A DNA stretch of 61,855 nucleotides, the filler included. It is 14 parts of 14 records of this genome, joined end to end, with 100 filler letters (N's around TTAATTAATTAA, not from the genome) between each part and the next. Parts side by side here need not be neighbours in the genome. Positions count along the whole stretch, not along the records: positions 4,536 to 7,757 come from SRR7504441_11991; 13 more parts are not named here. One strand, given 5' to 3'. The first letter of the stretch is position 1. Every line of letters starts with the position of its first letter. Under the pieces are notes generated by a model that made no database searches, was not told the origin of the DNA, and saw nothing but the letters and a program-made list of their open reading frames with translations. Made by a program: the position numbers and the translations under genes. Shown piece by piece: positions 4,536 to 51,928 of this stretch.

Positions 4536-5727
4536 GAGCGCGGCTGGGAGCGGCGCGGTGCTGGTCTGGGCCCCGGAGCTGGCCGGAGTCGGGCTTTGGG
4601 TGCTGCTGGCCGTGGCCAATTGTCTAGCTTTCCTCTTCGGCTGGCTAGCACGTACGGCTGGTCTAGAGCGATGGGAGTACTCACCGAGTAAAGGGACTGT
4701 GTTGGGAGGGCTGGCGCGGACTGAGACCGTGTGGGCCGATTACGTTGTGAACGCGGCCGGCTGCAGGTCGGATCTTGTGGCTGCAATGGTCGGGCAAGAA
4801 TTCGTTGTCAAGCCTCGACTCGGTGAGTACATTCTGCTCCACAAAGATGAGGGATACAAATGCTCGCACACGCTGTTTCCGACCCCGCACCCGGTGTACG
4901 GCAAGGGGGTGCTGGTTCAGAATACGCTCTGGGGGAATTTGATTCTAGGGCCGACCGCGCGTGATACGATGCTGAAGGACGAACAATCGGGCAAGTACGT
5001 GGTCAATCAGAAGGTGGCTGACGAGGACAACAACAACATTATGGGCTACATCCTGAGCAAATGCCGCAGCCTAGTCCCATCCTTCGACGCGGCCAAGGTT
5101 ATCCACACATTCGCCGGTGTCCGAGCCAAGAACTCAACCGGCGACTGGATCATCGGCCCCGCCCCAGGCCAGCCATGCTTCATCAACGCGGCAAGCATTG
5201 ACTCCCCGGGCATCGCGGCAAGCCCTGCGATCGCCATCGACGTGGTGCGGATGCTCAAGGAGGCCGGGGCGCCTGTGAACCAGCTGGATCCTAACTTCAA
5301 CCCTGTCCGGGCTCCAATAGTGGTGCCAAAGGTCGGGCTACGCGGGCTTAAAATGAACAAAACGGCCTGGTGGAAGGAAAAAGACCCGGCCAAGAATGTT
5401 GTGTGCAAGTGTGAGCGGGTGACCGAGGCCGAGGTTGTGGACGCCATTCATCGGTCGCTTCCTATAGACTCAACCCAGGCGATTCGGAAGAGGACAAGAG
5501 CTGGCATGGGCCACTGCCAAGGCGACCCTGCCAACTACTGCTGCGAGGAGCGGGTAGCTACCATTATCGCCCGCGAGACCGGGCTCGGCTTGCATGAAGT
5601 CGGCAGGCGGCCATGGCCGGCGTCATCGATGCTCAGCAAGAGGTTGATTGGAGATACCGATAGGCAGCTGCTCAGGGAGCTGAGCCAACCGGGCCGGCAG
5701 TACAGCTTGCACGGCGCGGCCGACTAG
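4536..5727 (+). CDS. FAD-dependent oxidoreductase (GlpA / L-2-hydroxyglutarate oxidase-like) with C-terminal BFD-like [2Fe-2S] domain; 5' partial
   Basis: ADYVVNAAG, PRLGEYILL, GNLILGPTA, FAGVRA, IDSPGIAASPAIA; VCKCERVTEAEVVDAI...KRTRAGMGHCQG. Confidence 0.85.
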
Positions 5728-6189
5728 CGCCCGTGGTCATCTTAGCCGCAGCTGCTTATCAGCTGTAGCTCACTAGCCCACGCAGGCGACCTGTTGGCGA
5801 CCTGTTGTTTTGTGGTCTTTGCGCTTATCGCATCGATTTCAATTTTACATGTCATGTAGCAATTACCATATTACATGATTGTACATGTACATGATATTCG
5901 TTATTTGGCTCGTCCCGACCTTTCAATAAATGAACAGGTCTATACAACTGGTCATGATTATAATTTATACGGACAGACTGTATTGCAGTCCCCTACACAA
6001 CGCTTTACTGTTCGATCGCGCGATTGCATACCAGTATACCGTACAACATCTGCTAACAACCATTCAGCCATCCCCGACATCTACCGGTATCCCGGGCTCC
6101 ATCTCGATCAACCGCCTTGCCACCTCCCGCGGCTCCTCAATCCGGCCAGGCCAGAGGCCTCACCTCTACATCGCTAAGCCCCGCCCTGT

Positions 6190-7686
6190 CTAGCATCGCA
6201 GCCTCGCCTGCCCTCCCATCCGCTCAGCCGCCACCGCCGCACCTCCGCGCCGCCGCCACGCGTGCCTATAGCTCCGATCATAATACCTTTTAAACCAATG
6301 AGTCAGGCCATGCCAGCACCGTAAGGCGGCACCGGAGCAAGATAGCCGCCCCGCCTGCAGTGTCGCCTTCACTAATCAATTTCACTGCCCGGTCGGTGTC
6401 TTCTCGTCCCAGCCTGAAACCGCTTGCCAACGGACATGCTGGGCCACCTGGCAGCGATCTTGGCAGTAGCAGCCACCAGCTCTTCTCTCGGGCGATCCCC
6501 TGGCCACCCATTTTAATTTATTTATTATTAATAACTATGGCGGCAGCACCGTAAAGCTGCACCAAATGTCCCAACCGCTCGCCCAACGGTCGATCCAGCT
6601 CCACGCGCCACCCGCTGCCGGCCGATCAGTCCCGGAATTTCCGTTAAAGCCGTCACCGGCTCATCTGGTCCACAATTTCAGGTGGAATCCGCACGCTGGA
6701 GGGCCAATCAGGATTAAAAATAAATCGAATCGGGGCACCGGCCCAGCTGCGGGCTCTCGGCCTCGAGCCAGACCACCCGGCTCGGGTCGGTCTCGGCCTG
6801 CCAACGGACTTCAACGGACTCCAACGGACAATTCACCCAGAGTTTGGCCAGACAGTTTTCAAATAACTGCTGGCTCGGCTGATCCGGGAGCCCCAGCGCT
6901 GCCCCAACCGCTCCCCGGCCGCACTCCAACGGCAAACCGCCAAACGCCGAGCCGCGGTGCCCGGCCGCCCGCTCTAGATCGAGCACCTGAGCTCCGGCCG
7001 CGCTGAGCTTGGCGAGCACCGCGGTCTTGCCGGTCCCTGTGACTCCACCGAGCAAAGCGATCGCCCGACGGGACGTCAGCTGCTCTCGAACCTGCCCAAC
7101 CGACTGGCCCAACGGATTTTAACGGACATTTCACCCACTGCCGGTGCTGCTTGTACCCTCCGGCCAGAAGCTCGGCGCGGATCCCCCGCAGCGCCAGCAG
7201 ACCGGCCACAGTGCTGCACAAAATCCGTTAGAATCCGTTGGTTACCGTTGGTACCGGCTCCGGAGCCCACCTCGGGCGCAATACACTCCGATCTGCCCCG
7301 TCGCCTCCGCCCCCGGCCGTCAGTTCACTCACCGGCCCTTCGGCCGCCGTCCTGCGGGCCACGGCGACGATGTGCTCCGGTTCGACCCTCCGCAGGCCCT
7401 CAGCAACGGCAGCCGCGTCCCCGCGCTGCTTCCACAGTCTGCCCACCTGCCGGCCGCTCGGACCGCTCAGGGCGGGTTGCTGCCTCCGCCCGGCCGCTGT
7501 CATCCAGCACAGGCAGGTTGATCGCCCCCGGGATGTGCCTGCGGGACGTCATCACCAGGGAAGGTATCAGGGACGTCATCACCCCCGGGCGAACTCGGCC
7601 GGGCTGCGCACGTCCAGCCCCCGCACCCCGGGCCCCAGCTGCGCCACTGCCGCCGGGGCCCGCCGAATCAGCCAGTCCAGCCGCAT
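6190..7686 (-). CDS. selU: tRNA 2-selenouridine synthase (rhodanese + P-loop), bacterial-type, split by about 12 short introns
   Basis: Spliced: [99 protein letters not shown], YYD. These are the SelU/MnmH motifs in order. Confidence 0.88.
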
Positions 7687-8243
7687 TTCCGCGTTCCGGT
7701 TGTCCGTTAGCTGTCGTTAGGACCGGTTACTGTCCGTAAGGCCTGTACGAGAAGAATNNNNNNNNNNNNNNNNNNNNNNNNNNNNNNNNNNNNNNNNNNN
7801 NTTAATTAATTAANNNNNNNNNNNNNNNNNNNNNNNNNNNNNNNNNNNNNNNNNNNNAGCCTTCCTCGAGGCGCCGGTCCGCCACGGAATGGCGGGCCTC
7901 CAGTGGCGAGTGCGGACCATGGCAGTCTACATGGTCTGCAGGATGGCGGCGCTGGCGGTTAGCTCAGCGTGATCGGGCTGGCCATTACACATTTCGGTGG
8001 CCGGCAGCTCGGTATAGTTGCCGTGGATGCTACCGCCTATCCCGTCGCTCATGCTGATAGAACCATCTGAGCTCGCGAGGCTCAAGAGAGTGCCTAGTAA
8101 GTTGTAAGCTTAGGTAAAGCTTAGATGCGGATTTTATAACTAGTAGGTCTGTTACTAATCGACATCCTACAGTAGAAATAAAAATGCACACCAGATCTTG
8201 ACCAGATCTATATGCCTATATATGCCCACTATGCATACACTAA

Positions 8244-10952
8244 TTAGTGATAGGCCGATTGCGTCACTAACGAAGCCTTCAGTCGCGCCCTCAAATGGTC
8301 CTCACTAGCATTGGCCGGAGTGAACATAATCTCATGAGTTTCATTCGGTGGTAGCAACAGCCCATTTTCACTGAATACGCCCGGAATGTGCGTGCTCATC
8401 CACACGAATGCGGACAATTCTTGTGCCTTCAGCGAGAAGCAAACGCATCCATCACTGCACGCCTCAAAGGATTCAACAGAGAGCATAGGATCTTTGAGAG
8501 GCACACCGATGAAGCTGCGCGGCAACAACACCGAAGATGGTTGCTGCCCTCCGACCGACCTGAGCGTGCAGCGTATAGCTACATCAGCTCTAGTCCTGCC
8601 ATCTGTGATGTGACCGATTGCACCTGACCAGAGGACATCTGAGCTGAAGGCCGGGATGCTGACTGTTGTTTGGTTCCTGAATACCAATTTGGAAGTTTGC
8701 CATTCCCAGACCTCGACTTCGAGCTCTGCCGTCACATCTTCGGCCAAATCATTCACGTGGGTAATATTCACAAGGTTGGCTGGGCCCTCTTCAACACCCG
8801 CAAATATGCTGACGCTCACCGGCTCAAATGCCTCTTTCGCAACGTAGTGAAGAAGTTTCCATCGTCCCCCGTACTCGAGACTGCTCCAGCTCTGGGCTTG
8901 CCACACATCATTCAACTGCCAGTAAAGTGCGCCGTAAGTATATGCGCCTGGAGTCTGTTTGAGCGTTCGGTAATACCGAGCTTGCGTCCCAATGCACAGC
9001 GACTGCACCACTTGCGACAGGTAGATGAACCGCTCGAAGACAGAAGTCTTGTTGCCGCTTTTTGGCAGTGGAAAGAATCTAGAAATCTGTCGACTCAGCT
9101 CGATGTTGCCATTCGGATGGCGTTGTCGGTGGTTCATCATCGTTGAATTGTTGTCCCAGTCGGACGGACTAGTCACTTGAGATAGCGTGTACAGCGATGG
9201 GTATGATTGCCAGCCAAATTCAGAAACAAATCGGCCACGCGGGTACAGAGAAGTGAGGGTGCATTCAGAATTGTAATCGTAGTGCCTCACGTCTCCCCAG
9301 CGAGGGTCGAACGCATCATCGAGCCAGCGGTGTATGTACATACCGTCTGCCGGCCGATCCACAATCGCGTCGTTGCTCGGGCTTGAGGCAAAGAACGACA
9401 CAACTGGATTTACTTGCCAGAGCGCCTGACGAGCGGCTTGATCAAACAGAACTGCAAGGTCTGCGGTGAAAAGCCGAAGTTTGCCGATATCGACACCTCC
9501 GGGCACATTGGCACGGCTCTGGCGGTAAGTGTCTATCACAGCTTCATTGGAGCCGCACCAGAGCACTAAGCTCGGGTGGCCGGTCAGTCTCCTGGCCTGG
9601 TCTGTCACTTCCCTCGCCACATTCTCAACAAACTCGTCATCCCGAGGGTAAAGCGCACTAGCAAACTGCAAGTCTAGCCAGACGAGCAGCCCCAGTCGGT
9701 CGCACGCCTCCCACAGCGCGGCCCGGCCGTAGTCGCCGCCACCCCAGATCCGGAGCACGTTCATGTTGGCCGCAGCCGCTGCCTCGATTTGGGCCTCCAG
9801 TTGCGCATTGCTCAGCCGCGAGTCGAGTGCGTCAAACGGAACGATCGAGGCGCCGCGCGCAAAGATCGGGATTCCGTTGACCCGAAGGATCATCGAAGCG
9901 CCGGACTCGTTTGCCGGCAGTGAGCTCCTGTCGAGAGCAGCCACCCGGAACCCGATCGAGCGCTCCAAAGTATCTTGATCGTCCAGGCAGGCCGAAAGCC
10001 GATAAAGCGGCTGGGCTCCGTACCCGACTGGCCACCAGAGCCGCACCGCGCTGGCCGGCACCCGGAGAGTGGCCGTGCCAACTACCTCCTGGGCAGGCCC
10101 AGCGCACTCGACCCCGACAGTGGCCGTGCGGTTGGCCAACCGAAAGCGGAGAGTGCCCCGTCCAGCGACCGCGCAGCTGACCGACGCCCCAACTCGGACC
10201 AAGAATGTGCTGGCCTCGCCTATGCGGTACACAGCCGGCCAGCCGGTCGAGTTGACAGGGCTGAGGGCCGAGTCTAGCGACATGTCCGCCCACAGCTGAT
10301 CCAACCGGCGGCCCCGACCGGACCAGGCAAGCCCGACCGGGCGCCACACCCCGACCGGGGCGATGGCTGGCCCCCAGTCCCACCCGAAGTCGGACGGACG
10401 CTTCCGGATGAAGTTTGGGTGCGGCAGCCCGGACGGGAAGCTGGCCGCCCCGACCGAGTAAGGGTACGCCGCGGCTCGCCGGGCCGCGTACGGCACAGGG
10501 CCTTGGAACTCGATCTCCAGCAGGTTGCCGCCGGCCCGGAGCAGTCCAGCCGGGAGCAGCCACTGGTGCCTTCGGAACTGGTTGTTGGCAGCCCCGACGA
10601 GACGTCCATTCAGCCTGGCGACAGCGACAGTGTCCAGTCCGTCACACACCAGCCAGCAGTGCACCGGGGCCGGGCCGGGCCAGCCAAACTGAGTGCTGAA
10701 GGTCCAGTTGTCCGAACTCACCCACCGGCTGGCCAGATCGTTGGCCGCCCGGTACACCTCCCCAATCCGGCCGGCCCGGGTCAGCGCCAGGTGCACGTCG
10801 CCGGGGACCGTGACCCCCTCGAGCCAGATCGAGCCGTTGGCGTTCCGCAGCCGCCATTCGGCACTACCTAGGTCCCGGGTGCCAGCGTCGGCAGCAGCTG
10901 TTGCCGCCGCCACAGCCGCCGCCACAGCCACCGCCTTGCAGACAGCGCACAT
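8244..10952 (-). CDS. Secreted beta-mannosidase, glycoside hydrolase family 2; intronless
   Basis: Signal-like N-terminus; VPGDVH, FIRKRPSDFGWDWGP, LWWPVGYGAQPLY, NMNVLRIWGGG, HPSLVLWCGSNE, RFVSEFGWQS, LYWQLNDVW. Confidence 0.93.
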   Translation of the reverse strand: MCAVCKAVAVAAAVAAATAAADAGTRDLGSAEWRLRNANGSIWLEGVTVPGDVHLALTRAGRIGEVYRAANDLASRWVSSDNWTFSTQFGWPGPAPVHCWLVCDGLDTVAVARLNGRLVGAANNQFRRHQWLLPAGLLRAGGNLLEIEFQGPVPYAARRAAAYPYSVGAASFPSGLPHPNFIRKRPSDFGWDWGPAIAPVGVWRPVGLAWSGRGRRLDQLWADMSLDSALSPVNSTGWPAVYRIGEASTFLVRVGASVSCAVAGRGTLRFRLANRTATVGVECAGPAQEVVGTATLRVPASAVRLWWPVGYGAQPLYRLSACLDDQDTLERSIGFRVAALDRSSLPANESGASMILRVNGIPIFARGASIVPFDALDSRLSNAQLEAQIEAAAAANMNVLRIWGGGDYGRAALWEACDRLGLLVWLDLQFASALYPRDDEFVENVAREVTDQARRLTGHPSLVLWCGSNEAVIDTYRQSRANVPGGVDIGKLRLFTADLAVLFDQAARQALWQVNPVVSFFASSPSNDAIVDRPADGMYIHRWLDDAFDPRWGDVRHYDYNSECTLTSLYPRGRFVSEFGWQSYPSLYTLSQVTSPSDWDNNSTMMNHRQRHPNGNIELSRQISRFFPLPKSGNKTSVFERFIYLSQVVQSLCIGTQARYYRTLKQTPGAYTYGALYWQLNDVWQAQSWSSLEYGGRWKLLHYVAKEAFEPVSVSIFAGVEEGPANLVNITHVNDLAEDVTAELEVEVWEWQTSKLVFRNQTTVSIPAFSSDVLWSGAIGHITDGRTRADVAIRCTLRSVGGQQPSSVLLPRSFIGVPLKDPMLSVESFEACSDGCVCFSLKAQELSAFVWMSTHIPGVFSENGLLLPPNETHEIMFTPANASEDHLRARLKASLVTQSAYH

Positions 10953-10988
10953 TGGCCCGGTCAGATAATAACGGAATTGACCCCAACG

Positions 10989-13090
10989 ATGCCAGGGAGC
11001 CCCGGACAGCTCCGAGCCCAGCTGGCGCAGCTGGACAGTGCGGTAGTCCAGGCGGCCGAGCAGGCGCGCAGGGCCGGGGACGGGCTGCTCCGGCTCCAGC
11101 CGCCCAGCCCGGCCGCCCTCCAGGTCCAGCTCGACCTGGTCACTGCCGCGCTGGCCCGGGGGGAGACCGCGGCGGCGGCCGAGACCTTGATCCAGGCCAA
11201 GTGGGCGCACAGCTTGTCCGGTCAGCCGGGGTCGCCGGAGGAGGGGCGGCTGCCCGGGGGGGTGCCCTGCATGGGCGAGGAGGAGCCGGCAATTGGGCTT
11301 CCCCCGGCCCGGCGGTCGCAGGTCGAGTCGCTGGCGGCGGTCGAGGCGGGCGTGCTGGCCAGGCTGCAACGGATGATTGAAACGGACCGGCACCCCGAGT
11401 TGCAGCAAGCGCACCAGCTGCTCTGCCGGTGAGCCGGTCGGCCGGGCGTCTCGATCCGTGCGGCAGGCTGCATGGGGCAGATACGGCCTGGGAGCGGCAT
11501 CTAGCCCGGCGGGAGGCCCAGCTGGCCCAGATAGGCCGGGACAGCCCGCCCGATGAGCTGGCGCCGCAGCTGGCCCGGCTAGCCGACCTGGACCGGCCGC
11601 TGCTGCCGGACGCCTCGCGGGCCGATCGGCTTGCGAGAGCGCATCTCAAGGTGCTGAGCAGCGCGGTGGGCGAGCTGCCGCTTAGCGAGTCGGTGGGTAT
11701 GGCTCTGCTCGCGGACAAGCTGGCCGAGCCCAATCCGGAGCTGCTCCGGCCGGCCAGCTGCCCGATGGCGGACAACCTGCGTGCAGCGGTTGCGACGCAA
11801 GCCACCAGCGGGCTCGCAAGAGACTTGGCCAACCTGCCGCTAACTCATCGGGTAAACGAGCGGGCGGCCAGGCTGAGCGGGCGGCAGCTGGCGGAATGCG
11901 GCGAGCGGATGGTGCTGGCTGGGCTCCAGGAGCTGCTTGTGCTCACGGAGCAGCTAGCAAGGGTGCGCAGCCCAGAGTTGGCAGCCCAGCTGCTCCAAGG
12001 GCTGCTGGCCGGGCTAGGGGGCTACAGCGAGCACAGCCCGGCTGATACGCGGCTCGCCGTCTATTGGGTACGGAGGGGCCGGTGGCTGGGCTGAGTGGGG
12101 GGCAGCTCGGAGGGTGGCTGCACACACAGAGCAGGCTGAGTGCAATAGAGATGGAGCTGACTCCTTTGTTGGGGAAGACCAAGCCGCGGCTGATGGCAGA
12201 GTTGTATGGCCTGGTGGAGCAATCGGCCAGTGCCCAACTCGAGAAGCTCGGCCAACAGCTGGAGACTGAGCTCGTGAAGCACTGTCTGCCGGACTTGTTT
12301 CGGACTGACTGGGACTGCCCTAGAAAGTATGCTCGGCCCTGCCTGCTCGGGTATGGACTGCAGCTGTGGGGAGTGCGGCTCGATAGGCTTCTGACTGACG
12401 CCGAGGCAGCGCTGCCGGACCCGGCTGGTGCGGCTCTGCTGGCGCGACACATGCGAGACGCCTTGTGCGTGCTTGGTGCATATTATGGCCAGATCCAGCC
12501 CTCGCGGGCGCAGGCTGACCGTTTCGAGGCAGAATTGAGCCATTTGGTGGCAATTGCGGGTGCCGTGATCGGTTGGGTTGGTAGAACCGACCAGGAGCTG
12601 CCGCTAGCTGATCTGAAGGCTCAGCTTGAGGCACTACAGGGTCAGTTGGCAGTGATGTGCGGGCCCCTGGGCGTGTTAATGGCCCTGCTTGCTGGTCAAC
12701 CGGTGACTCCTAATGAGACAGGCGGATTGCTTCCGCCATTTGTGGCCTCAGAAGTGGCTCGGCTGGAGTTATCGAAGTTGGAGGCTGAGCGGTCGAGTCA
12801 AGACTGTCCGGTAGCGCTGGGGGAGTGCCAGCCTGGGCAGCTATTCCGTTGGGCATCCGCGCGGTGCGGCCAAGTGCGATGGCCAGCCGGTGAGTGGGCG
12901 GGCAGGCCGTTGCTACGCGAAGGAGACTATCCGCCTAGGAGCGAGGAAGAAGAGCGGTTAGCTAAACAATTGCGTGCGGCGGTGCAAAGCTACTCCATTC
13001 AAGCATTGTCTTGGATTCACCATCATGCCAGGCTCACCAAGCGTGAGGCGCTGATTCTTTCCCTAGACCTGAGCAAGGCCTTTGACAGCT
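10989..13090 (+). CDS. KIAA0825/DUF4495-like helical protein, at least 2 introns, 3' end disrupted or partial
   Basis: ORF segments 10977, 11429 and 12064 are joinable through GT-AG introns. W..P+...C...LQLW......D....LP......LLA.....AL..L...Y..I.PSR resembles KIAA0825 as recalled. Confidence 0.5.
12990..13090 (+). mobile_element. Non-LTR (LINE-like) reverse transcriptase fragment
   Basis: SIQALSWIHHHARLTKREALILSLDLSKAFDS contains the LD+xKAFD motif of non-LTR RTs. GC drops here, and the contig ends at 13090. Confidence 0.7.
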
Positions 13091-15858: not shown

Positions 15859-16602
15859 GCCCCAACCATCCACTCGAGGCCCTCAAACGGCCCTCTAAGC
15901 GCGGATGCAAGCTCTTCTCCCCTAGGGATTTCAGATAAAGTGCAACAAAGCTCGCAACATACAATCATGAATTGATGGTTGCATCGCATCGCTCGATTTG
16001 TGGATCCATCGTGTAAACAAGATCGGGATTCTCAGATCCGGTGGAATGGACACCCACCCACTCGTGCCTTCGTCTTCTATCAGGCGCATGTAAGAAATGC
16101 ACTGCGATCGACGTTGCGAATTCTTTGATTCTCGGCGCGTTCGAATGTATTGCAATAATCCATGTCTAATACTCGTTGGTTTGCAGGTTCGGAATCGGTC
16201 CATCATGGGGGATGCTGCTTGGGGCAGGAACATCTACCGCACGTGCCATCTCGGCTCAATCGCATGTACATGACCACTCTGAACTGTTTGAAGTGAGTGA
16301 ACGAGTCGGTGAGTGAAGTTCACCTCGAGCGTAACGGAANNNNNNNNNNNNNNNNNNNNNNNNNNNNNNNNNNNNNNNNNNNNTTAATTAATTAANNNNN
16401 NNNNNNNNNNNNNNNNNNNNNNNNNNNNNNNNNNNNNNNGAAGACAGGCGTCGCCGGGGTCGATGTGGATCCGCCAGCAGCGATAGGCCTGCACCAAGAC
16501 CGTCACACAGCCGCGCTGCGCGCCGGCTGGTTCGGCACACCGGTGCGTGGTCGGCTCGGGGAGGATCTCCTAAAAAACTAACGGAATCCGTTGCTCCTCA
16601 TC

Positions 16603-17966
16603 ATGCTCCTGCTCCTGGTGGGCCTTCTGCTGCGGATGGCTGCCGCCACGGCCGCGGATGACCCGGCCGCCGAGCTCGAGGCTAGGTGCCCCTGCCCGCC
16701 GGGCCGAGGACCGAGCCGGTCGGCAGGCTGCAGCAGTATTTCGACGCCGCGGCGGCCCAACGAAACACCTCTTTCAGCTTCGCGGTCAAGACCAGCGCGT
16801 TCGAGCTGGCGGTGGCCAGCGGAATCAACGATCACAGGACCGGGTCGCGGGTGACCACCGAGGCGGTCTATCCCAGCGGCTCGATTACAAAGTCGTTCAC
16901 AGCGGCGGCGGTGCTCCAGCTTGTGGAGCGGGGCGCGCTGGCGCTGGATGGCCGGGTGGCCCCGATGGTGGATGACGTGCTTGGCCTGCTGCACAACACC
17001 TCGCTCCAGCGGCTGTGGGAGGGCAACCCGGCGGTGCTCGAGATCACCCTGCGCCAGATGCTTAACATGCAGAGCGGGCTACCGGATTACAGCGACGGCT
17101 GGCTCCAAAATCTATCCAGGGCGCACCCGCGTCGGGATATTACGCCGATGGCCTACTTGCAGAGTGTAGACAAGAAGCTGTCGTGCGTGCCGGGCACGTG
17201 TGGTGAATACTCGAGCGTAGGCTTTATTCTGCTAGGGTATGTACTTGTGCAGGCTGTGGTGATGCCGCAGGCGGGTGCCGCGACTAGGTGGCAAGACTAC
17301 AACCAGCGGGATGTGATCCCGGCCGAGCTCGCTGAGGAGTTGCAGCGCGTGATATTCATGATGGAGGGTCCGTGCACTCAGTACGAGCCCGAGGGTCTGG
17401 TGCAGCAATACAGCATAGTGCCGGAAGCTCCTTCAGCAAGCTCAGCTGTGTTTTCAAACATCAACGACTGGTCGTGCCTCGACGGCTGGACCTGTGGCAA
17501 CGTGGCATTGACCGCATTGGACGCGGCCAGGTGGTTCTTTTACCTGTTAGGCAAGAAGCCGATGATTGTGAAGAACGAGAGTCTTAGAAATGAGATGCTC
17601 CAGTTCAAGGAATTCGTTGTGCCCGGCTGGGGCAGAGGCAACTACTATGGGCTCGGACTGGAGTTGATACCGGAGTACGCTGGCTGCTTGGAGCCTCCAG
17701 AGAAGGCTGTTCCGGGTGGCCGGTTGGAGATCGTGGGGCATGGCGGAATGGACTATGGCTCGTCAGGGCAGGCTTACTACATCGCTCTTTACGACTTGTC
17801 AATAGGCTTCACCTCCAACAGCATGCCAGACAACATGAACAGATCCACGTTTGTTCATGGATTTCCGGGATTGTCTATTAAGACTGGGTGTGATGCTCTT
17901 AGCATCGTGTTTGAGGTACTCGGAGCCGGCACTTGGCTCAACTTGAATTGTAGCGGCCTCTCGTAG
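16603..17966 (+). CDS. Secreted serine hydrolase, beta-lactamase/AmpC-like family; 1 intron
   Basis: Signal peptide; SGSITKSFT (SxxK), ITLRQMLNMQSGL, YSSVGFILLG, YGLG, GHGG. Confidence 0.85.
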
Positions 17967-18182: not shown

Positions 18183-21100
18183 TCATGTTGTAAGCCTGGC
18201 TCCGGTAGCGTGCAGCGAAAATAAATGCTTTAGCATGTACTGCGATCCTGTGGTGATGTAGCCGTCGTCAGTGGCAGTGCTCTTCACAACTTGCCCGTCG
18301 ACTCTAAACTCGTATTGCTTGCCATCAGATGCTGCGGGTAGAGCGATGATGGCACTCACGCCGACAGGCAGATCTAGGTCCAGAGTGAAGCTCTCTCCTG
18401 AGTTACTGGTGAAAGAGGCTCGAATTGGCCCCTTGATAGTCGGCATTGTGTAAGACCCGTGTCGTAACTCGCCTGGCGCCGGTTTGATGGAGACCATGTC
18501 GAAGCCGGGCGAGGTGGGAGTGAGCCCAAACAAGAACCAGGGTATGATGAACCCCGGTGAGGATGCCCACGGATGGCTCCAAGTCAGATTGGGCTTCTCG
18601 TCGGCGCTCCACATTTCCATCGTAGTTGTGGCGCCCTGCTTCAACATGTTCCCCCAGGAGTTCTTAGCATCCGACTGCAGAACTGCCAACGCAGCCCGGC
18701 CCTTGTCAGATGGGTTCCCAGCATACAGAGCTTGCAGCACAAACTGTGAGACGTAGGTGCCACACGGCATGCCATCCCTGCTGCCAGGCGGGGGTGGTGG
18801 TGGCCAACTGCTGACGACTTCTTGCTCAAACGGTGGGTCGATTCGGCCCCTCACATACTCCCACGCTGCAAGCTGTTGCGATTTGGACTCGACCGCTCCC
18901 AATGCCAGCATGTGCACAGACGCGTGGAAGGATGTGTGAGTGGTCTCCTCGCCGCAAATTCCATCGCAAAAAGCAGTGCCGTTCCAAAGTTTAGTGGCTA
19001 TAGCTGCCCGCAGGCTCACGGCCCTTGCAGTGTAAATGCCCTGCTCAGCAGTGCGACCGAGCCAACCAGCCATCTCGGCCATGTACGTTAGGCTGTAATG
19101 AGCAAACGCGTTTGCAACAGTGCTGTGCGCCGCGGAGGTGTCATACCGATCCTGCATGCCATATGGCCAGTCGATCAGGCAGTCGCTCCTGTTGAGCAGT
19201 CCAGAGCTGTCAGTTCGGTTCAAAACCTCCAACTCCATCATGATCATCAGGTGGTCGAAATGCTGGTGCAGAAACGTCAAGTCGCCCGTGTGCAGCGCGT
19301 CATCCCGAGCCATCACGATCGGCAACACTGTCCAATCAAACCGGCATCCGCCAGCACCGAGCGCACCACTCCCACAAATCGTGAGAGCTTGCTGCAACGC
19401 GTACCTCTGCAACGCTAGCGAAGAGGAGGTGGCGTAAGCCGTGCGCATTGCGGTGTTGTCGTCAGCCATGCAGTCGATCGAGCGTTGCCGGGCATTCGAG
19501 TCCGAGTACATGTCGAGCGAGGTCGCTTCCGATGTATATCGACAGAGCTCCCAGACGGCGTCTAGCAGCGCACTGCTCGAATTCATTACCGCAGGCTGAT
19601 CGTACCGCTGCCTCACAACAAACGCACCGACAAACAGGATGCTCTCCAGCGTGATGGAAGTGTCGTTGAACACCAACTCGCCGTACCGTCCTTCAATGTA
19701 TTCGTGGTTCTGGGCCATCGCATCGGGTGCGGCGGGCAGCACCCACACGTCCTCGTATCGGCTGCCGGTCCGCATGTTAAAGCACACGCGGTCCACTTGC
19801 TCTGGCGCGGTGGCTGTGCAGAACCCGGCCGTGAGGGGGTCTGCTTCCGGCTTGAGCAGTTCCTCGCCGAACCTGACTCTCACCTCAACCGCTCGAGTCA
19901 GGCTGAGCTCGAGCACCAGTCCGCCTTGGATCTCCCGGCCCATGTCGAAACCGAATACGCCAGCCCCGAGTGACCGGAGGGAGGAGGCGGGCTGGCGGGG
20001 GAGAATCTCGACGGGCGGCACATTGCGCACAATCAGGTTGGCGAATGGAGGCTTGCGCACTGCAGGGTGCCACCCGTTGGCTGCACCTGCCCCGGATCCG
20101 TTGAACGAGAGAGCCCGCATCTCTGGTGGCATCAGCGTCAGGTCCAAGTACTCGTGCGGCGCATAGTACCAGGCGCCTCCACCCGAGCTGCTCAGCTGTG
20201 CCTTGCTGTGCCCGCCACCGCCGGCTTTCCACAGTCTGGCGAGGTAGATCCCATCTGCATCGTACGCCGTCCAGGCGGTGGGATCACACAGTGGGCACAC
20301 GATCGTCCCATTGATATACCGCACCCACACCGCTGCGGCCACCCGCCGGGTCACATTCGGCTGATCGTAGCCGTAAGCTTCGATTAGCAACTCACTCGCA
20401 GCATGCATCAGCGGGGTGACGTCAAATGCATCGAACACGGACTCGACGCCATGTGGGCAGAGGGCAGGACTGGATTGGGCGTAGTTGAGGTCGCACTTGG
20501 ACCGGCCCGGACCAATCCCGACAAGCTTCCCGCCCAGCCAAGCCTTGTAACCTCCCAAGAGCGGCCGCGACCCGATCGGGCCAGGCTTGGGAGCTCTGCC
20601 AGGCCCATCCGCAGTGACATAGAGCAGGGCAGACTGGATTGGGCCCTGGAGACTGGGCAGTTTCCCCCTGAGGAAGGCAAACTCGGGTCCGGTGCGTGAC
20701 GCGTTGTCCGCAGCCCAGATGGCTGGCCCGAGTGGCGCTGGGGTGATGATATACTGTGGTGAAGACCAGGGCTGGCCAGATGCGCGGGCGACCCAGCTGA
20801 ACCGGCAGGCCGGGCAGGCGGGCAGCTGGAGCCTGTGGTCTGCCTGCCGCTGGCCCGAGGCAGCATGGAGCAGACTGCCGTTGGGCCATCGGAGTTGGAG
20901 TTCCCATCCGCGGCCCGGGCACGACTGGAAGCTGATCCGGACGGCCGCCTCGGCCAGCACTGGGCTCGACTGCATGTTGGCGCGGAGCTGGCTCACTGTG
21001 CACTCGGGGGGCGACTGCATGCTGGGGAGGCTGGTGGCGTTCCAGCAGACGCAAAGGTCGCAGCCGGGTCGGGTGGGCGAGGCGCCGCAGCCGGTGCACG

Positions 21101-21203
21101 GGGTGAATGCCGTGCACATTGTGCTGAAGCAGCAGCCACACCGCTGCCCGGTCGGACAGCCGACGGCCAGCCCCAGCCACACCACCAGCGACAACCACTG
21201 CAT
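18183..21203 (-). CDS. Secreted alpha-L-rhamnosidase, GH78; intronless
   Basis: FDMGREIQGG, VRFGEEL, DMYSDSNARQR, LIDWP..MQD, GATTTMEMW, NLTWSHPWASSP, PTIKGPI. Confidence 0.9.
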   Translation of the reverse strand: MQWLSLVVWLGLAVGCPTGQRCGCCFSTMCTAFTPCTGCGASPTRPGCDLCVCWNATSLPSMQSPPECTVSQLRANMQSSPVLAEAAVRISFQSCPGRGWELQLRWPNGSLLHAASGQRQADHRLQLPACPACRFSWVARASGQPWSSPQYIITPAPLGPAIWAADNASRTGPEFAFLRGKLPSLQGPIQSALLYVTADGPGRAPKPGPIGSRPLLGGYKAWLGGKLVGIGPGRSKCDLNYAQSSPALCPHGVESVFDAFDVTPLMHAASELLIEAYGYDQPNVTRRVAAAVWVRYINGTIVCPLCDPTAWTAYDADGIYLARLWKAGGGGHSKAQLSSSGGGAWYYAPHEYLDLTLMPPEMRALSFNGSGAGAANGWHPAVRKPPFANLIVRNVPPVEILPRQPASSLRSLGAGVFGFDMGREIQGGLVLELSLTRAVEVRVRFGEELLKPEADPLTAGFCTATAPEQVDRVCFNMRTGSRYEDVWVLPAAPDAMAQNHEYIEGRYGELVFNDTSITLESILFVGAFVVRQRYDQPAVMNSSSALLDAVWELCRYTSEATSLDMYSDSNARQRSIDCMADDNTAMRTAYATSSSLALQRYALQQALTICGSGALGAGGCRFDWTVLPIVMARDDALHTGDLTFLHQHFDHLMIMMELEVLNRTDSSGLLNRSDCLIDWPYGMQDRYDTSAAHSTVANAFAHYSLTYMAEMAGWLGRTAEQGIYTARAVSLRAAIATKLWNGTAFCDGICGEETTHTSFHASVHMLALGAVESKSQQLAAWEYVRGRIDPPFEQEVVSSWPPPPPPGSRDGMPCGTYVSQFVLQALYAGNPSDKGRAALAVLQSDAKNSWGNMLKQGATTTMEMWSADEKPNLTWSHPWASSPGFIIPWFLFGLTPTSPGFDMVSIKPAPGELRHGSYTMPTIKGPIRASFTSNSGESFTLDLDLPVGVSAIIALPAASDGKQYEFRVDGQVVKSTATDDGYITTGSQYMLKHLFSLHATGARLTT

Positions 21204-21423
21204 GATTTGCCGTTAGGCTGACTGCAAGCTAAGATGGATACGTGTAGTCAGGTGCCACATCTTACAACACACCTTACAAAACAAACTGAAAAGCACATCT
21301 TCAAAAAGCACTTCTTACAAAGTNNNNNNNNNNNNNNNNNNNNNNNNNNNNNNNNNNNNNNNNNNNNTTAATTAATTAANNNNNNNNNNNNNNNNNNNNN
21401 NNNNNNNNNNNNNNNNNNNNNNN

Positions 21424-25711: not shown

Positions 25712-26306
25712 GCTCATGCACGCTAATTCATGACCGGACAAAAGTATGATCGTTACACTGTAACTATAAATTGCCAATAAACCTTAAACTTGTTGAATTA
25801 TTGATCAATGTGAATTATTGTACTCTAGATTTTCGAATTAGTCGATGAGTACAGTGTAGCGAATGAGCGGATGGGTCGGGTGGGTCACTTGATAGGTCAC
25901 TTGAGGGCGGGCTGTCACGGCGCCGGCGGGGCCTTCCGAGTCCGCACGAGTCACTACAGGCAGGCCCAGCACCGGCCGTGGGGAACATAATTAATATGAG
26001 TGTACATCACTAAGGTCGGTAATGCTCCCTCGGGCTGGATCATGATGACACCGAGACAAGTCAGTTGCATCAACCTCTAAGTCATATTTCTATACACACT
26101 ATAAGCTGACGCCTCACGTCGCCTCTCAGCACCTCACTGCTGGTTGTTGGCCTCGCCCTCCGAGGCCGCTGGCGCCAGAACCATCGAGGCCNNNNNNNNN
26201 NNNNNNNNNNNNNNNNNNNNNNNNNNNNNNNNNNNTTAATTAATTAANNNNNNNNNNNNNNNNNNNNNNNNNNNNNNNNNNNNNNNNNNNNCGCACTCTG
26301 ACCGCC

Positions 26307-26945
26307 GTGATGCTCTTGGGAACGGCCGGGGCGGCCCTCGCTCCTCCTCGGCAGGGCGGCAAGGCCATGGTGTGCGGCGACGGCGTTGCGGCTTGCGGGG
26401 TTTTAGCGCTCATGACCGGGCTCGGATCGGGCGTCCAGAACGTCACTGGCGGGGCGATCTACGGCCATCCTGCTCCGGTGCTCCACGGCTTGTGGCCAGA
26501 GACCCCGCCGTACGGCACCTCCAAGTGCCTGCCCCCCGGCAGCCCGGACCCGCCCGCTACTGTCTACCCGTGCTACGCCTGCGGGCGCGCTGACACTAAC
26601 TGCAGCGACACCGTTGGGCACTCGCCGAGTCAGTTTCAAGCGCACGAGTTCGGCAAGCACGGGATCTGCGCTGGCGTGGCCTCCGCCGACGATTACTTCA
26701 CCCAGCTCTGCGCCATATCGGCCAAGCCGCTTGCGGCTCTCAGAGCGGCTCGGACCGGTGGGGTCACGTCACTGAGCGGATTCTCCGCGGCTGTTGAAGC
26801 CTCGGACGAGGCGGTAGAAGTCTTTGGGACAAACCAGGCCACGATGGAGCTGTACCTGTCGGCTTGCCGGGACGAGGCAGCCGGCAAGTGGGTGCTTGCG
26901 CCGGCCAAGAGCTTTCCGGCGAGGTGTGGCGGCCACGGTCGTTGA
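26307..26945 (+). CDS. Ribonuclease T2 family, secreted (5' end at contig edge)
   Basis: CAS I LHGLWP and CAS II HEFGKHGIC. Confidence 0.9.
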   Translation: MMLLGTAGAALAPPRQGGKAMVCGDGVAACGVLALMTGLGSGVQNVTGGAIYGHPAPVLHGLWPETPPYGTSKCLPPGSPDPPATVYPCYACGRADTNCSDTVGHSPSQFQAHEFGKHGICAGVASADDYFTQLCAISAKPLAALRAARTGGVTSLSGFSAAVEASDEAVEVFGTNQATMELYLSACRDEAAGKWVLAPAKSFPARCGGHGR

Positions 26946-27297
26946 TGAACTCGGTACTGGTACGTACTCAGTAGTTAAGGGAGTAGGAGTTGGCTCAGCG
27001 CTGGCGCGGGAGCGGATTCGGTGGAGGGTCTAGAGGAGGGCACTGTGACTGACTTGCGACCTTGCCGCTAAGGTTCCGCCGCTCGCTTCAATGTTTTTAA
27101 TCATTTTAATTAAAAACATGAATACGAGTAGTCGTACTGACAATACTGCGTACTCGTACGAGTATACTGAGTAAGTAAAGACTGATACTCTTAGTGCTCG
27201 CTAGTTCATGAATCAGCTTCCTAGCAAACTGCGCGCCAGTCGCGCCTTAAATCACACCGGCATTCAATACGATGCTTATGTAGTACATCACATTACA

Positions 27298-28807
27298 TCA
27301 CATCCACGTACTGCATTTCCGCAAATCGAGCGCATTCGGCGGCAGCTTTGACAGACTTAACTCCAGCTCGCGCGCCGGCTCGTCGTTCCGCTCAAACACG
27401 CAGATGTGCATCTCACATTCGACAGAGGCCAGCAGCGGCTGCAGCGTGGGAAAGCAAGGCCCCGCAGCTGGCTCCTTCCACCGATCCTTCGGGGCTCGGT
27501 CGCCACAGTAATGCAAATCTGCCATGATTTGTGGCAGAAACTGGGTCCTGTCCAGTGTCCGTCATACATTTGCAGCCGGCGCCAATCAGTGCCTGAATTT
27601 ATTGCTCGCGGCAGTCGGTTGTATATCCTCGACCACGAGCAACCCTCGAGGAGCAAGCCTAGGGAACCAAAACAACATCGACCCGACCTGCGGTTAGATT
27701 CCGTTAGAGTCAGTTGGGACTAAACCATGTGCGTCGCGTGGTGCGACCCGTCGTCCACCACCAGCTTAAGCGGCGGCGCGCCTGGCACCGTGTTAAGCTC
27801 ACCTTCCTAATCGGGAAAGCGTTGTTAACCTGGCCGGTTGAGCCTCTCGCTCCAGGTTTTGTTCAGAAATTCAACGTTGCTGGCATCGCCACAGTGCAGC
27901 CGCCGTTCGGTTAGGTATTTCTGGTAGTTTTCATGCTTTGCGGCCTCGTTGACGTGAGGGTATTCCTTGGAGCAAGCCACCTCTATCGAATGAGCCTCTG
28001 CATTTGGCATGAATGCTTCATAGGCTTCAAACCCGCCGCCCAAGTAGAAGCCTGCCCCAACAGCAGCCCTAAATCATCGTTATTAGCTGTACCATTATAC
28101 ATAGTAATTACCGTATGCTATCAATACTAGTATTAACACATTATTAACACATATTGTCACCGATCTCCAGAAATAGAAATCTTGGCGTCTCCGGCCGTGA
28201 CAAGTGCCCTATTCGCCTCTGATAGAGCGTATTATAAAAGTGGCCCCACGGCCTGGCCGTTACTTTCCGTTAAATCCAACGGCCGGCACCTGCACGCCTC
28301 GCGGACTGCAGTCGGATATATGCAAGCCGTCCCGTCCCGCAGGCACCGCTCCAGGTTGGCGTTGGCCTGCCACAAGCCGCTCTCAGGCCACAGATATGTC
28401 CGTTAAAACTCCGTTACCAGCCCCTTGTCGCTGCCCGTCTTCTGGCTCAGCGCCAGGAATTCCTTCTCGCCTTCCCTCCGAGTCGTCACGCCGACCATGT
28501 TCGCCCCCACCCGCCGGCCAGGCTTGCCGACCGTCCGGCAGGACCCGCCGTCCGGATTTCCGTTGGAATTGCCGTTGGGTTTGGCCGTTACATCCCGCGC
28601 CTGCTGCCGCAGCTTGGTCTGGAGGGAGCCGACCAGGGCCTGCAGCTGCGCCACCCGGGCCGCGGCGCCGTCGTCCGTTGGGGCCAACGGCAGGGGCGTC
28701 CGTTGGTGCAGCTGGTCGCGGGCTGCGTTCTGGGCCAGCAGCAGGCACAGCCCCAGCGTGGCCAGCAGGTTGAGTCCCACTGCCACGTCGCGCAGCTCGA
28801 GCCGCAT
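27298..28807 (-). CDS. Membrane-anchored class I SAM-dependent methyltransferase-like protein, several introns
   Basis: N-terminal TM; GSDK, CRPWGHFYNTLYQ, FLEIG, HSIEVAC, LHCGDAS, LVVDDGSH, LLVVEDIQP after splicing. Confidence 0.75.
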
Positions 28808-28865
28808 TCCTCCGGAATCCTCGCACAAATTCCGTTATAAGTACAGACTCAACGGCCATATTCCT

Positions 28866-30171
28866 ATGGCAGCAGCAGCAGATCTGGACAGGCGAGCCTC
28901 CGCCGCACTGCAGTACGTCGAGTCCGCGGCCCGGCAGCAGCAGCCCGGGGCGGTGGGCACAATCACCGAGATCTGCACCATGTCTAATCTCCCCGGCTCG
29001 GTGCCCGCCGCGCTGCTGGATCGGCTGGGCTCGGCGGCCAGGGTGGCCATCCACTTCCATCCGGACAGGACGGTGCACAACGGCAATTCGGTGGTGGGCT
29101 CGATGCTCGAATCGGGCACCGTCCAAAACCAGTTCGAGACGTTGATTTCCAACGGACGGCTCGACCCGGACCCGACCGGCCAGCGCGCCGGGTGGGAGGC
29201 CAACCTGTTCGGCGGGGCGTACAGCAACGCCCCGCCGGCTGAGCGGCCAAAGTATGGCGCGATGGCGCTGCTCGGCCAGGCGGACGGCCCATCGCCGCGG
29301 TTCGGCTCGTGCTATTTCGTGTTGAACCCGGAGGTGTGTGGCGGTTAGTGGCGGTTATTTCAACGGTCGGCAGGTGACGCACCGGAGCACGTTCTGCTTC
29401 GGCGACTCGCACACAAACCCAACGGTCCGGGGCACAAGCAGCACCTGGGAGCCGGTGATTTCCAACGGCTTTCCAACGGCTTTCCAACGGAATTTAGGTG
29501 CTCGCGGAGCTGCTGAGGGAGAGTTTCACCCGCGACGAGGCGGTGCAGCCAATGCTGTCGGGTCAAAGTCCGTTAAATGTCGTTAGGTGGGGGTGCGCCC
29601 GTTGCGGCCTGCGGGGCTGGTGCGCCGGATGAGTGGGCTGCTGGAGGGCCCGCTGGAGCTGCTCTGGAATCAGCATCCCGCGGCACGGAACCTCGATCAC
29701 TATGTCGAAGCGCAGGTGCTGCCACTATGCTTTAGGCTATACAATAGTGTATTATATAGTATGTAGTATATTATTATGGCGGGGGTAGGTGCATGGCGAG
29801 GTCCGGCTGGATCGGGACGTGGCAGCGCTGGTGGCCGACCCGTCGTTCCAGGTTAACACCGCCTCCCCGATTAGGAAGGTGGCGCTTAACACGCTGCTCA
29901 GGGCACAGAAGCCGGCGAGCAGATGGCCGCGCTAGCTGACCGGTGCGGCTATTGCCGTTAATTCCAACGGAATTCAACGGGCAGATATGGCGTGCTGCTG
30001 CAGTGGCATCCGGGTTCTGCTCTGCTTGTGAACCAAGTGCTCAGTTTGATTTGATTTATTAATAATAATATTTAGTATTAACAGAGATTATTCTGCAGGT
30101 GCCGTCGGACTTTCGAGGGCCTCAGATGCCAAACATGGCAAAGATGGTGCCCAACCGACTAATCTGTGGCC
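28866..30171 (+). CDS. DUF3626-family protein (bacterial-like), at least 7 introns, 3' partial
   Basis: RVAIHFHPDR, QFET.ISNG, WE..LFGGAY, RPKYGA, GPSPRFGSCYFVL, RSTFCFGDS, LDHYVEAQVHG.V.L..DV..LVADPSF, VPSDFRGP. Confidence 0.8.
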
Positions 30172-49944: not shown

Positions 49945-50622
49945 TCAGTTGACGTATCTGACCGGGTCTGGGCCTCCTGACGGCCTCCAGCTCTGGCCTC
50001 GGACTCTCCAGAGCGGCTCAACCGCCCGGCCCCGGAGCGACTCGGCGTAGCTCCGATCGATGGCCATGGCCGTCTCGGCCATGTCCTCCCGCTCCATCAC
50101 CCAAAGCCCTTGCTGGATCGTCCCCGGGTCGCCCAGCCGGTACCTGACACCACCACTCTCCACCACCGGCGCGCGCGGCGGCAGACACGGGGCCGGGCCG
50201 GCGCGGGCGTTCACTACCCGACCGTCCCGGGAGGGTAAATGGGCCTCGGTGGGTGGGGTGTGCCGCCAGCAGTCGCGCGGTCGGCAGCCGGGCGGCTTGG
50301 TACCCGCCCGAGCCGGGACCGGTGGGGCGATCTCGGGCGAGTCTCGGGCATGCGCCCACAGGTGGCACCCCGGGGGTGGGTCGAAACGCTGCTCGGTCGG
50401 CCGGATCACTCCGAGCTCGACTCCATCGGCTCGGACTAGGCGGACCACCAGCTGATTGATCATGCCGGGAGGGACCTCCAGCTGGCGCGCCGCTTGCTGG
50501 AGCAGCTGGCGGTGTGTAACGGAACGGCCAACCGACAGCTGCGAGCACGAACCTGTTGAAGTGAGCAGCGGCAGCACCTGCGCCCGCTCAACGCCCAAAG
50601 AGCCCGCCACAACCCTCACCAT
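49945..50622 (-). CDS. Hypothetical protein
   Basis: ATG-initiated ORF in divergent arrangement with CCGTT motifs upstream; no family recognised. Confidence 0.45.
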   Translation of the reverse strand: MVRVVAGSLGVERAQVLPLLTSTGSCSQLSVGRSVTHRQLLQQAARQLEVPPGMINQLVVRLVRADGVELGVIRPTEQRFDPPPGCHLWAHARDSPEIAPPVPARAGTKPPGCRPRDCWRHTPPTEAHLPSRDGRVVNARAGPAPCLPPRAPVVESGGVRYRLGDPGTIQQGLWVMEREDMAETAMAIDRSYAESLRGRAVEPLWRVRGQSWRPSGGPDPVRYVN

Positions 50623-50670
50623 TGCCGTTGGAGACCGTTGAGATTCACGGTGTGGTGCGCGGCGGTCGCG

Positions 50671-51827: not shown

Positions 51828-51928
51828 TCTCCTCGAAGACCTCGGCTCGGCTGCCGGCCGTTACTCAGTGCCGTTACTCAGGCTCAGTTGAGTTCGCTGC
51901 GAGGCAGGTGACAGGGCCGCAGGCAGCG

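Follow-up and report, generated by a model that had tools for sequence, protein, structure and literature searches.

Phased YAACGG arrays in the tiny introns of three protist genes: possible Myb-type regulatory sites

Described systems closest to the arrays

Homotypic clusters of transcription-factor sites with helical phasing hold several copies at multiples of about 10.5 bp, in mixed orientation, and usually lie in intergenic enhancers or promoters. Here we describe arrays of the hexamer YAACGG (Y, pyrimidine) that are instead confined by splice sites to slots of 40 nucleotides (nt), namely the introns of three genes in a window of 61,855 nt, the whole stretch of DNA that was analysed. The genes encode SelU/MnmH (tRNA 2-selenouridine synthase), a Methyltransf_24-like protein and a DUF3626 protein. 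All counts and comparisons rest on these 62 kb of one genome, which comprise 14 contigs of 3-7 kb joined by N44, a fixed 12-base linker and N44; distances and neighbourhoods across the joins carry no meaning, and the linkers fill most of the output of repeat finders.

The word itself is closest to the sites of two-repeat (2R) Myb proteins. In Phytophthora infestans, every 2R-Myb that yielded a motif binds sequences sharing CCGTTAC (PMC11267843), and the plant mitosis-specific activator (MSA) consensus, (T/C)C(T/C)AACGG(T/C)(T/C)A, is counted on both strands (PMC5405339). As far as these accounts go, the arrays resemble such elements in their core and leading pyrimidine, and in that they occur in either orientation, near promoters and often with several copies to a gene, but differ in lying inside 40-nt introns at a fixed one-turn spacing and, compared with MSA, in preferring A and then C/A after GG instead of Y-Y-A. 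In Trichomonas vaginalis, the Myb-like protein M3BP binds the core-promoter motif M3 (PMC4450334). M3 is likewise a Myb-type word, acting very near the start of genes whose leaders are short, and again in a protist, although the organism is unrelated and the account cited reports M3 neither in introns nor in phased arrays (PMC4450334).

Two further systems concern the introns. The plant motif TTNGATYTG raises expression from introns, from the 5'-untranslated region (5'-UTR) or from coding sequence, independently of splicing (bioRxiv 10.1101/269852). These three settings match the places of the arrays described here, whereas the plant word is a different one, plant introns are long, the preprint text cited describes no helical phasing, and the present arrays are known from sequence only. 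Introners form families with numerous near-identical members, in which target-site duplications are usual and terminal inverted repeats frequent (PMC11282704). They share with the present introns the relatedness of introns in unrelated genes, a likely recent gain and one hairpin-forming duplicated pair; an excess of target-site duplications and inverted termini on the arrays are lacking here, and one clear pair (88%, 50 nt) is present in 62 kb. Elements of about 40 nt built of decamer repeats are not described in the introner account cited (PMC11282704). In the parts of the literature covered, CCAACGG together with introns led to unrelated works only, and introners together with short introns, tandem repeats, stramenopiles and both orientations led to no such arrays.

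Introns, word and phasing

Homology supports 25 introns in the three genes, of which 23 have GT-AG and two have GC-AG ends, and 21 are 34-51 nt long (Table 1). Splicing restores a frame collinear with homologs in all three genes, and each intron was also tested singly. In the SelU gene, two exons are matched by NCBIfam TIGR03167 (MnmH/SelU), and tblastn with five homologs gives a piecewise minus-strand alignment with gaps precisely at the proposed introns. Against a profile of 60 homologs (positions 9-323), the model with 12 introns scores 318.3 bits and the unspliced sequence 37.3 bits, and any single intron put back lowers the score. These values bear out the three introns delimited in an earlier note on this DNA, 6798-6836, 7092-7134 and 7214-7254, as SelU introns 7, 5 and 4, with both ends as proposed. 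The length of intron 5 shifts the frame, so that it must be spliced out. Intron 7 is in frame and free of stops; its removal involves no frame shift and follows from a gap in five of five homologs and a gain of 13 bits. Intron 6, a fourth motif-bearing intron with a 13-residue gap in all five homologs, had been missed because it is in frame.

The DUF3626 gene scores 395.7 bits spliced and 211.1 bits unspliced against a profile of 72 homologs, and the coordinates of Pfam PF12294 run contiguously over its exons. For the Methyltransf_24-like gene (hereafter the methyltransferase gene), the BLOSUM62 local score against the single homolog P0204 is 739 spliced and 66 unspliced, and each retained intron lowers it. 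Read-through could in principle occur at the in-frame SelU introns 6, 7 and 9 and DUF3626 intron 6. The apparent ends of the GC-AG introns (7447-7489 and 27548-27592, both on the minus strand) are those given by the homolog alignment only.

AACGG or CCGTT was counted 145 times on both strands of the window, whereas order-2 Markov simulations (n = 300) gave 105 +/- 10. The surplus is concentrated in two contigs (4536-7757 and 26292-30171), which hold 44 copies, 39 of them inside 6200-7757 and 28150-30100. A pyrimidine precedes AACGG in all 39 copies of these two loci but in 66 of 105 copies elsewhere, and the unit is therefore YAACGG. A count by compartment, which the earlier note had proposed as a check, gave within the window 25 strict sites in the 25 introns (1,186 nt; 21.1 per kb), 12 in the exons of the same genes (3,083 nt; 3.9 per kb) and 66 in the rest (56,141 nt; 1.18 per kb). 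Thirteen of the 25 introns have at least one site; 15 of the intron sites are sense and 10 antisense, and six of the 12 exon sites lie in the non-conserved exon 1 of the methyltransferase gene. The core with its leading pyrimidine is, at the sequence level, that of the Myb recognition element and of MSA-type elements. Upstream, C/T at -2 in 32 of the 39 copies fits the MSA consensus; the downstream flank does not, the base after GG being A in 21 of 39 and A or C in 33 of 39.

The arrays lie in SelU introns 4, 5 and 7, in methyltransferase introns 1, 2 and 5 and exon 1 (28560-28590 and 28675-28705), and in DUF3626 introns 1, 2 and 6, with one site in DUF3626 intron 3. Three SelU introns have antisense copies only, and SelU intron 4 is similar to introns 5 and 7 when these are read on the opposite strand. 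As first noticed, AACGG stands at 6803/6813/6823 and 7111/7121 and CCGTT at 7225/7235/7245, exactly at these positions, and the orientation is opposite in adjacent introns, sense in intron 4 and antisense in intron 5. The arrays extend further than the note had described, to additional introns, two more genes and upstream regions, yet they are not general to introns.

Same-orientation pairs of the 5-mer at 9-13 nt number 15, compared with a mean of 0.45 and a maximum of 4 in 300 order-2 Markov simulations. When the word is relaxed to YAACNG, same-orientation spacings over the window are 10 (11 pairs), 11 (4), 12 (3) and 13 (4). The period of exactly 10 nt claimed in the note holds for its three introns, whereas spacings over the window range from 10 to 13. 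Runs of at least three YAACNG sites at 9-12 nt occur four times (mean 0.01 in 200 simulations), and all four are inside verified introns, with starts at 6802, 7225, 27691 and 29463. Opposite-orientation YAACNG pairs also peak at 10, with seven at 9-12 nt compared with 2.0 expected, and none of 200 simulations reaches seven. A peak at 10-11 nt, which the note had predicted, is thus found within the window for both same- and opposite-orientation pairs, and the simulations of pair and run counts rule out a chance origin of the arrays.

The orientation of the sites flips within methyltransferase intron 2 (28253-28289) and DUF3626 introns 1 (29334-29373) and 6 (29943-29984) while the 10-nt register is kept, a pattern beyond the reach of head-to-tail slippage. 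In six of nine multi-site introns, the first site is 8-10 nt from the 5' splice site, in either orientation. The spacers had been described as variable around a conserved core. They are indeed more variable than the core, but not free, as seen from the bias for A after GG, and some arrays are near-perfect tandem copies. Tandem-repeat analysis (TRF) identified 2.9 copies of an 11-mer with 100% match at 29459-29490 and a period of 10 with 89% match at 6801-6829. In these two arrays the spacer is as conserved as the core, which is the pattern of simple slippage that the note had named as contrary to its proposal. The pattern is not seen in 7214-7254, 28253-28289, 29334-29373 and 29943-29984, in which the spacers are not alike or inverted units keep the register. 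The idea that degenerate lattice neighbours fail mainly at the N of YAACNG was dropped, since four of 12 cases do so, which is not significant. All arrays are within about 1.3 kb of the ATG of their own gene, a distance that is uninformative for intron-mediated enhancement because the genes are only 1.3-1.5 kb long.

A new observation concerns other genes: immediately before their predicted start codons, no word is more enriched than YAACGG. The genes were predicted with our own small gene finder, which took its splice model from the SelU introns and was used at the setting that recovers 11 of these 12. Outside the three genes, the 40-nt windows before 20 predicted ATGs (800 nt in all) hold eight of the 66 strict sites, compared with 0.94 expected (8.5-fold, P=7e-6). 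These eight, five of them sense, belong to six of the 20 genes. When all words in the 50 nt before each of the 23 predicted ATGs are counted without bias, TAACG comes first of 381 5-mers (10 vs 0.86) and TAACGG first of 707 6-mers (7 vs 0.44, in six of 23 regions). On predicted gene starts, the word is promoter-proximal and used in either orientation, as are Myb/MSA-type elements. In the 58-nt spacer between the divergent methyltransferase and DUF3626 genes, one YAACGG faces each gene (28832-28837 and 28850-28855).

Interpretation of the arrays

The reading that we favour, at a probability of roughly 0.45, is that a promoter-type site of the 2R-Myb type forms phased homotypic clusters in these introns, built by local duplication of a unit of 10-11 nt. 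A protein-binding DNA word is preferred because the promoter signal is independent of introns and splicing, and because of the strict pyrimidine, the two orientations, the register across flips and the arrays in a tolerant coding stretch. That a protein binds YAACGG, that the binder is a Myb protein and that the intron clusters affect expression is what we infer. The function at the level of DNA proposed in the earlier note gains from the enrichment at start codons, the register across flips and the arrays in exon 1; its qualification "rather than splicing" is less secure, as the sense word resembles a CTAAC branch site.

In this mechanism, YAACGG would be a protein-binding word of the type read by two-repeat Myb domains, and would normally lie within a few tens of bases ahead of a start codon. 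In the three genes it would have multiplied, by local duplication of a 10-11-nt unit, to two or three copies about one helical turn apart. The clusters would occupy the free interior of spliceosomal introns of 37-51 nt, from the 5' splice-site region to the 3' end, and also one non-conserved coding stretch. They may have been retained in either orientation and in register, as the copies would then face one side of the helix and load the same factor. With intergenic spacers down to 58 nt, introns could provide room for extra regulatory sites, which would be analogous to intron-mediated enhancement.

Several results weigh against clusters of a regulatory site. AACGG is absent from all 41 introns predicted by the gene finder outside the SelU gene and contig 26292-30171, and the arrays are confined to three genes on two contigs and are not general. 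The start-codon tests use automatically predicted ATGs from a crude gene finder trained on SelU introns. Moreover, some of the arrays described as upstream, namely 7711-7748 before the SelU gene and perhaps 50625-50640, might in fact be insertions or introns of the 5'-UTR. Perfect and near-perfect tandem arrays are as expected of recent neutral slippage, and the shared preference for A after GG (21 of 39) may mean common descent and not binding. No Myb/SANT domain was found in the open reading frames (ORFs) and exon pieces sent to Pfam, where 62 kb says little of the genome.

The alternative that survives best, although we regard it as doubtful, is that a selfish or neutral element of YAACGG decamers, comparable to an introner or minisatellite, has been copied into transcribed DNA in either orientation and without function. 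Copies would survive where they are spliced out or harmless, namely in introns, 5' leaders and non-conserved linkers, and would mark recent intron gain. Intron copying between genes does occur in the window, since methyltransferase intron 4 (27782-27829) and DUF3626 intron 5 (29852-29901), which belong to adjacent genes of one contig, are 88% identical and form hairpins, the first being flanked by a 5-nt direct repeat; yet the array introns lack terminal inverted repeats, and this pair is the only one that folds end to end. The array introns are alike in both orientations, with scores of 13-16.5 as compared with 12.5 at the 99.9th percentile of shuffled pairs, but this likeness is mostly the word itself. 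The SelU and DUF3626 host genes are of bacterial type, so that their introns were probably gained, the typical eukaryotic genes of the window have another, G+C-rich type of intron, and some arrays are perfect tandem repeats. Repeats resembling target-site duplications are nevertheless not in excess: the mean junction repeat of the 25 introns is 2.88 nt, permuting the flanks gives 2.90 nt, and 10 of 25 introns have a repeat of at least 4 nt compared with 35% expected. No transposase was found in the scanned ORFs. Copying of this kind also does not explain the single, non-repeated YAACGG 8-30 nt before the start codons of unrelated genes, or the lattice that is kept across orientation flips inside one intron.

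Eukaryotic branch sites include a CTAAC-type consensus, and sense YAACGG overlaps such a sequence. The arrays might accordingly be splicing filler, in which the unit is a duplicated branch-site region and slippage keeps introns above a minimum length; we judge this improbable. In SelU intron 4 and methyltransferase intron 5, sense copies include CTAAC 15-17 nt before the 3' end, duplicated CTGAC/CTGAG-like units stand at the same place in the ordinary introns of this DNA, internal tandem duplications are common (e.g. SelU introns 1 and 2 and DUF3626 intron 1), and the range of lengths is narrow, with 21 of 25 introns at 34-51 nt. A branch-site origin is difficult to reconcile with the 10 of 25 strict intron sites that are antisense, the three SelU introns with antisense copies only, and the invariant GG and invariant pyrimidine, which lie outside the branch consensus. 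The enrichment of the word ahead of start codons also falls where splicing would not be expected, and none of the 41 introns predicted elsewhere uses YAACGG.

Pairing of inverted arrays of the same or neighbouring introns in the pre-mRNA, steering splicing by exon looping, skipping or back-splicing, is very improbable: SelU intron 4-exon 5-intron 5 does fold with the arrays paired (-83.6 vs -68.4 +/- 4.7 kcal/mol in 200 shuffles, none as stable; z = -3.24) and methyltransferase intron 2 has an internal hairpin (z = -2.09), but any inverted repeat yields such a fold, nine of 13 introns folded singly are no more stable than shuffles (z -1.03 to +1.11; the other four -1.24 to -2.20), same-orientation arrays are unable to pair, and the start-codon sites are left unexplained. 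Arrays as a feature of all introns of this DNA were rejected, given their presence in three genes on two contigs only and in 0 of 41 introns predicted elsewhere.

Other features of the window and meaning of the arrays

The window is eukaryotic, very compact and about 58% G+C (features in Table 1). It contains no tRNAs and no known RNA families. The source organism is probably a stramenopile-like protist of an unsampled lineage, a placement that rests on an ABCG transporter whose best named relatives, about 40% identical, come from oomycetes and brown algae; transcriptome and metagenome proteins reach 53-59%.

Table 1. Coordinates of the genes, introns and YAACGG sites described, counted along the whole window
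Feature	Position	Strand	Basis
SelU/MnmH (tRNA 2-selenouridine synthase) gene, 12 introns of 34-50 nt	6190..7686	-	TIGR03167, tblastn, profile score
SelU introns 1-6	7539-7582, 7447-7489 (GC-AG), 7293-7332, 7214-7254, 7092-7134, 6899-6937	-	
SelU introns 7-12	6798-6836, 6696-6738, 6615-6656, 6500-6549, 6414-6447, 6287-6332	-	
SelU intron 4, 41 nt, three sense YAACGG at positions 5, 15, 25	7214..7254	-	model score
SelU intron 5, 43 nt, two antisense YAACGG and one YAACNG at positions 10, 20, 33	7092..7134	-	model score
SelU intron 6, 39 nt, one antisense YAACGG and one YAACNG, 22 nt apart	6899..6937	-	homolog gap, model score
SelU intron 7, 39 nt, three antisense YAACGG at positions 10, 20, 30	6798..6836	-	model score, TRF
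Four phased YAACGG-like units upstream of SelU ATG	7700-7748	-	strict site at 7704
Upstream interval, 38 nt, GT..AG ends, units at positions 10, 20, 30	7711..7748	-	read from sequence
Methyltransf_24-like gene, 6 introns	27298..28807	-	single homolog P0204
Methyltransf_24-like introns 1-6	28367-28417, 28253-28289, 28052-28160, 27782-27829, 27688-27725, 27548-27592 (GC-AG)	-	
Methyltransferase intron 4, near-copy of DUF3626 intron 5 (29852-29901, +), no YAACGG	27782..27829	-	repeat search
Divergent spacer, 58 nt, between two start codons (28807, 28866)	28808..28865	.	sequence
DUF3626 gene, 7 introns, truncated at contig end	28866..30171	+	Pfam PF12294, homolog profile
DUF3626 introns 1-7	29334-29373, 29455-29497, 29543-29586, 29716-29788, 29852-29901, 29943-29984, 30037-30098	+	
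DUF3626 intron 2, 43 nt, three sense YAACGG at positions 9, 20, 31, perfect 11-nt tandem repeat	29455..29497	+	TRF, model score
Convergent YAACGG pair, 10-24 nt upstream of predicted ATG 16603, beta-lactamase-family gene	16579..16593	+	
Single sense TAACGG, 12 nt upstream of predicted ATG 21203, rhamnosidase-family gene	21210..21215	-	
Two sense YAACGG (50625/50635), 10 nt apart, 8 and 18 nt upstream of predicted ATG 50622	50625..50640	-	
Two YAACGG (51858/51871), 13 nt apart, divergent spacer between predicted ATGs 51827 (-) and 51929 (+)	51858..51876	-	

The near-copy of one intron in the two neighbouring genes (E=2e-9) is the top non-trivial repeat of the window. Both copies begin with the palindrome GTTAAC, and the pair looks like a small introner or a miniature inverted-repeat transposable element (MITE), separate from the YAACGG arrays. 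Named relatives of SelU are bacterial, and relatives of the DUF3626 protein at 40-56% identity were present in 565 of 600 pattern-matched bacterial or archaeal genome stretches. A joint transfer of the methyltransferase and DUF3626 genes from bacteria was rejected, as none of 80 bacterial DUF3626 loci has a methyltransferase or SelU relative. Long intron-free ORFs at 8244-11645, 18183-21212, 16686-17966 and 4537-5727 belong to families common in bacteria (GH2 mannosidase-like, alpha-L-rhamnosidase, beta-lactamase family and glycerol-3-phosphate oxidase-like), in contrast to the intron-dense SelU and DUF3626 genes, which are of bacterial type too.

The introns predicted elsewhere in the window are G+C-rich, with CTGAC/CTGAG-like words and a G-run ahead of the final CAG. 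Pfam coordinates back three of them, all free of AACGG: two in the gene for a polyprenyl synthetase (49|50 and 75|78) and a third that separates ankyrin repeats. At 50580-50622 (minus strand), a G+C-rich intron of 42 nt starts directly after a predicted start codon, which would reduce exon 1 to the ATG. In the three array-bearing genes, the introns 6500-6549, 28052-28160, 29716-29788 and 30037-30098 are A+T-rich (24-37% G+C); they are alike and also resemble A+T-rich 3' ends of genes, e.g. near 40293 and 41211.

The interval 7711-7748 upstream of the SelU gene is possibly the decayed remnant of an intron in the 5'-UTR, laid out like the SelU array introns. SelU intron 1 (7539-7582, minus strand) contains twice, 27 nt apart, a 13-nt unit with the 5' splice site and the TGACGTC word, which resembles a cAMP response element (CRE); the duplication creates a second potential donor within the intron. 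CRE-like words, with these two copies in SelU intron 1, were too few to interpret. The same applies to CCAAT-box-like words (CCAATCA/CCAATGA), which occur at 6704, 27582 and 6295 in three of the 25 introns; these are three of 19 copies in the window, introns being 2% of the sequence. The arrays in methyltransferase exon 1 are in frame in a low-complexity linker after a hydrophobic N-terminus, in what is apparently the first exon. The 69 nt at 28525-28593 (minus strand) have GT..AG ends and could be a further in-frame methyltransferase intron.

On a broader view, a compact protist might use its tiny introns as slots for phased arrays of a promoter word, regulatory DNA having moved in where spacers are tens of bases; or a new intron-forming element of transcription-factor-site decamers, active in both orientations, might have seeded introns in acquired genes of bacterial type. 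In either case, intron content would be shaped at the level of DNA by a Myb-type factor and not by the spliceosome. We consider this general picture unlikely as it stands.

Should a factor bind the arrays and expression depend on them, they would be a natural case of introns kept, and even gained, for regulatory DNA, in an architecture simple enough (three sites, one helical turn apart, in 40 bases) for an easy reporter test. If the arrays are instead the footprint of intron generation, they would represent a very small, orientation-independent introner made of binding-site units in bacterial-type genes, an outcome that would bear on the origin of new introns. In-frame introns of 39 nt such as 6798-6836 and 6899-6937 would escape ORF-based annotation. 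Either way, YAACGG is a candidate for the main promoter element of an unsampled lineage.

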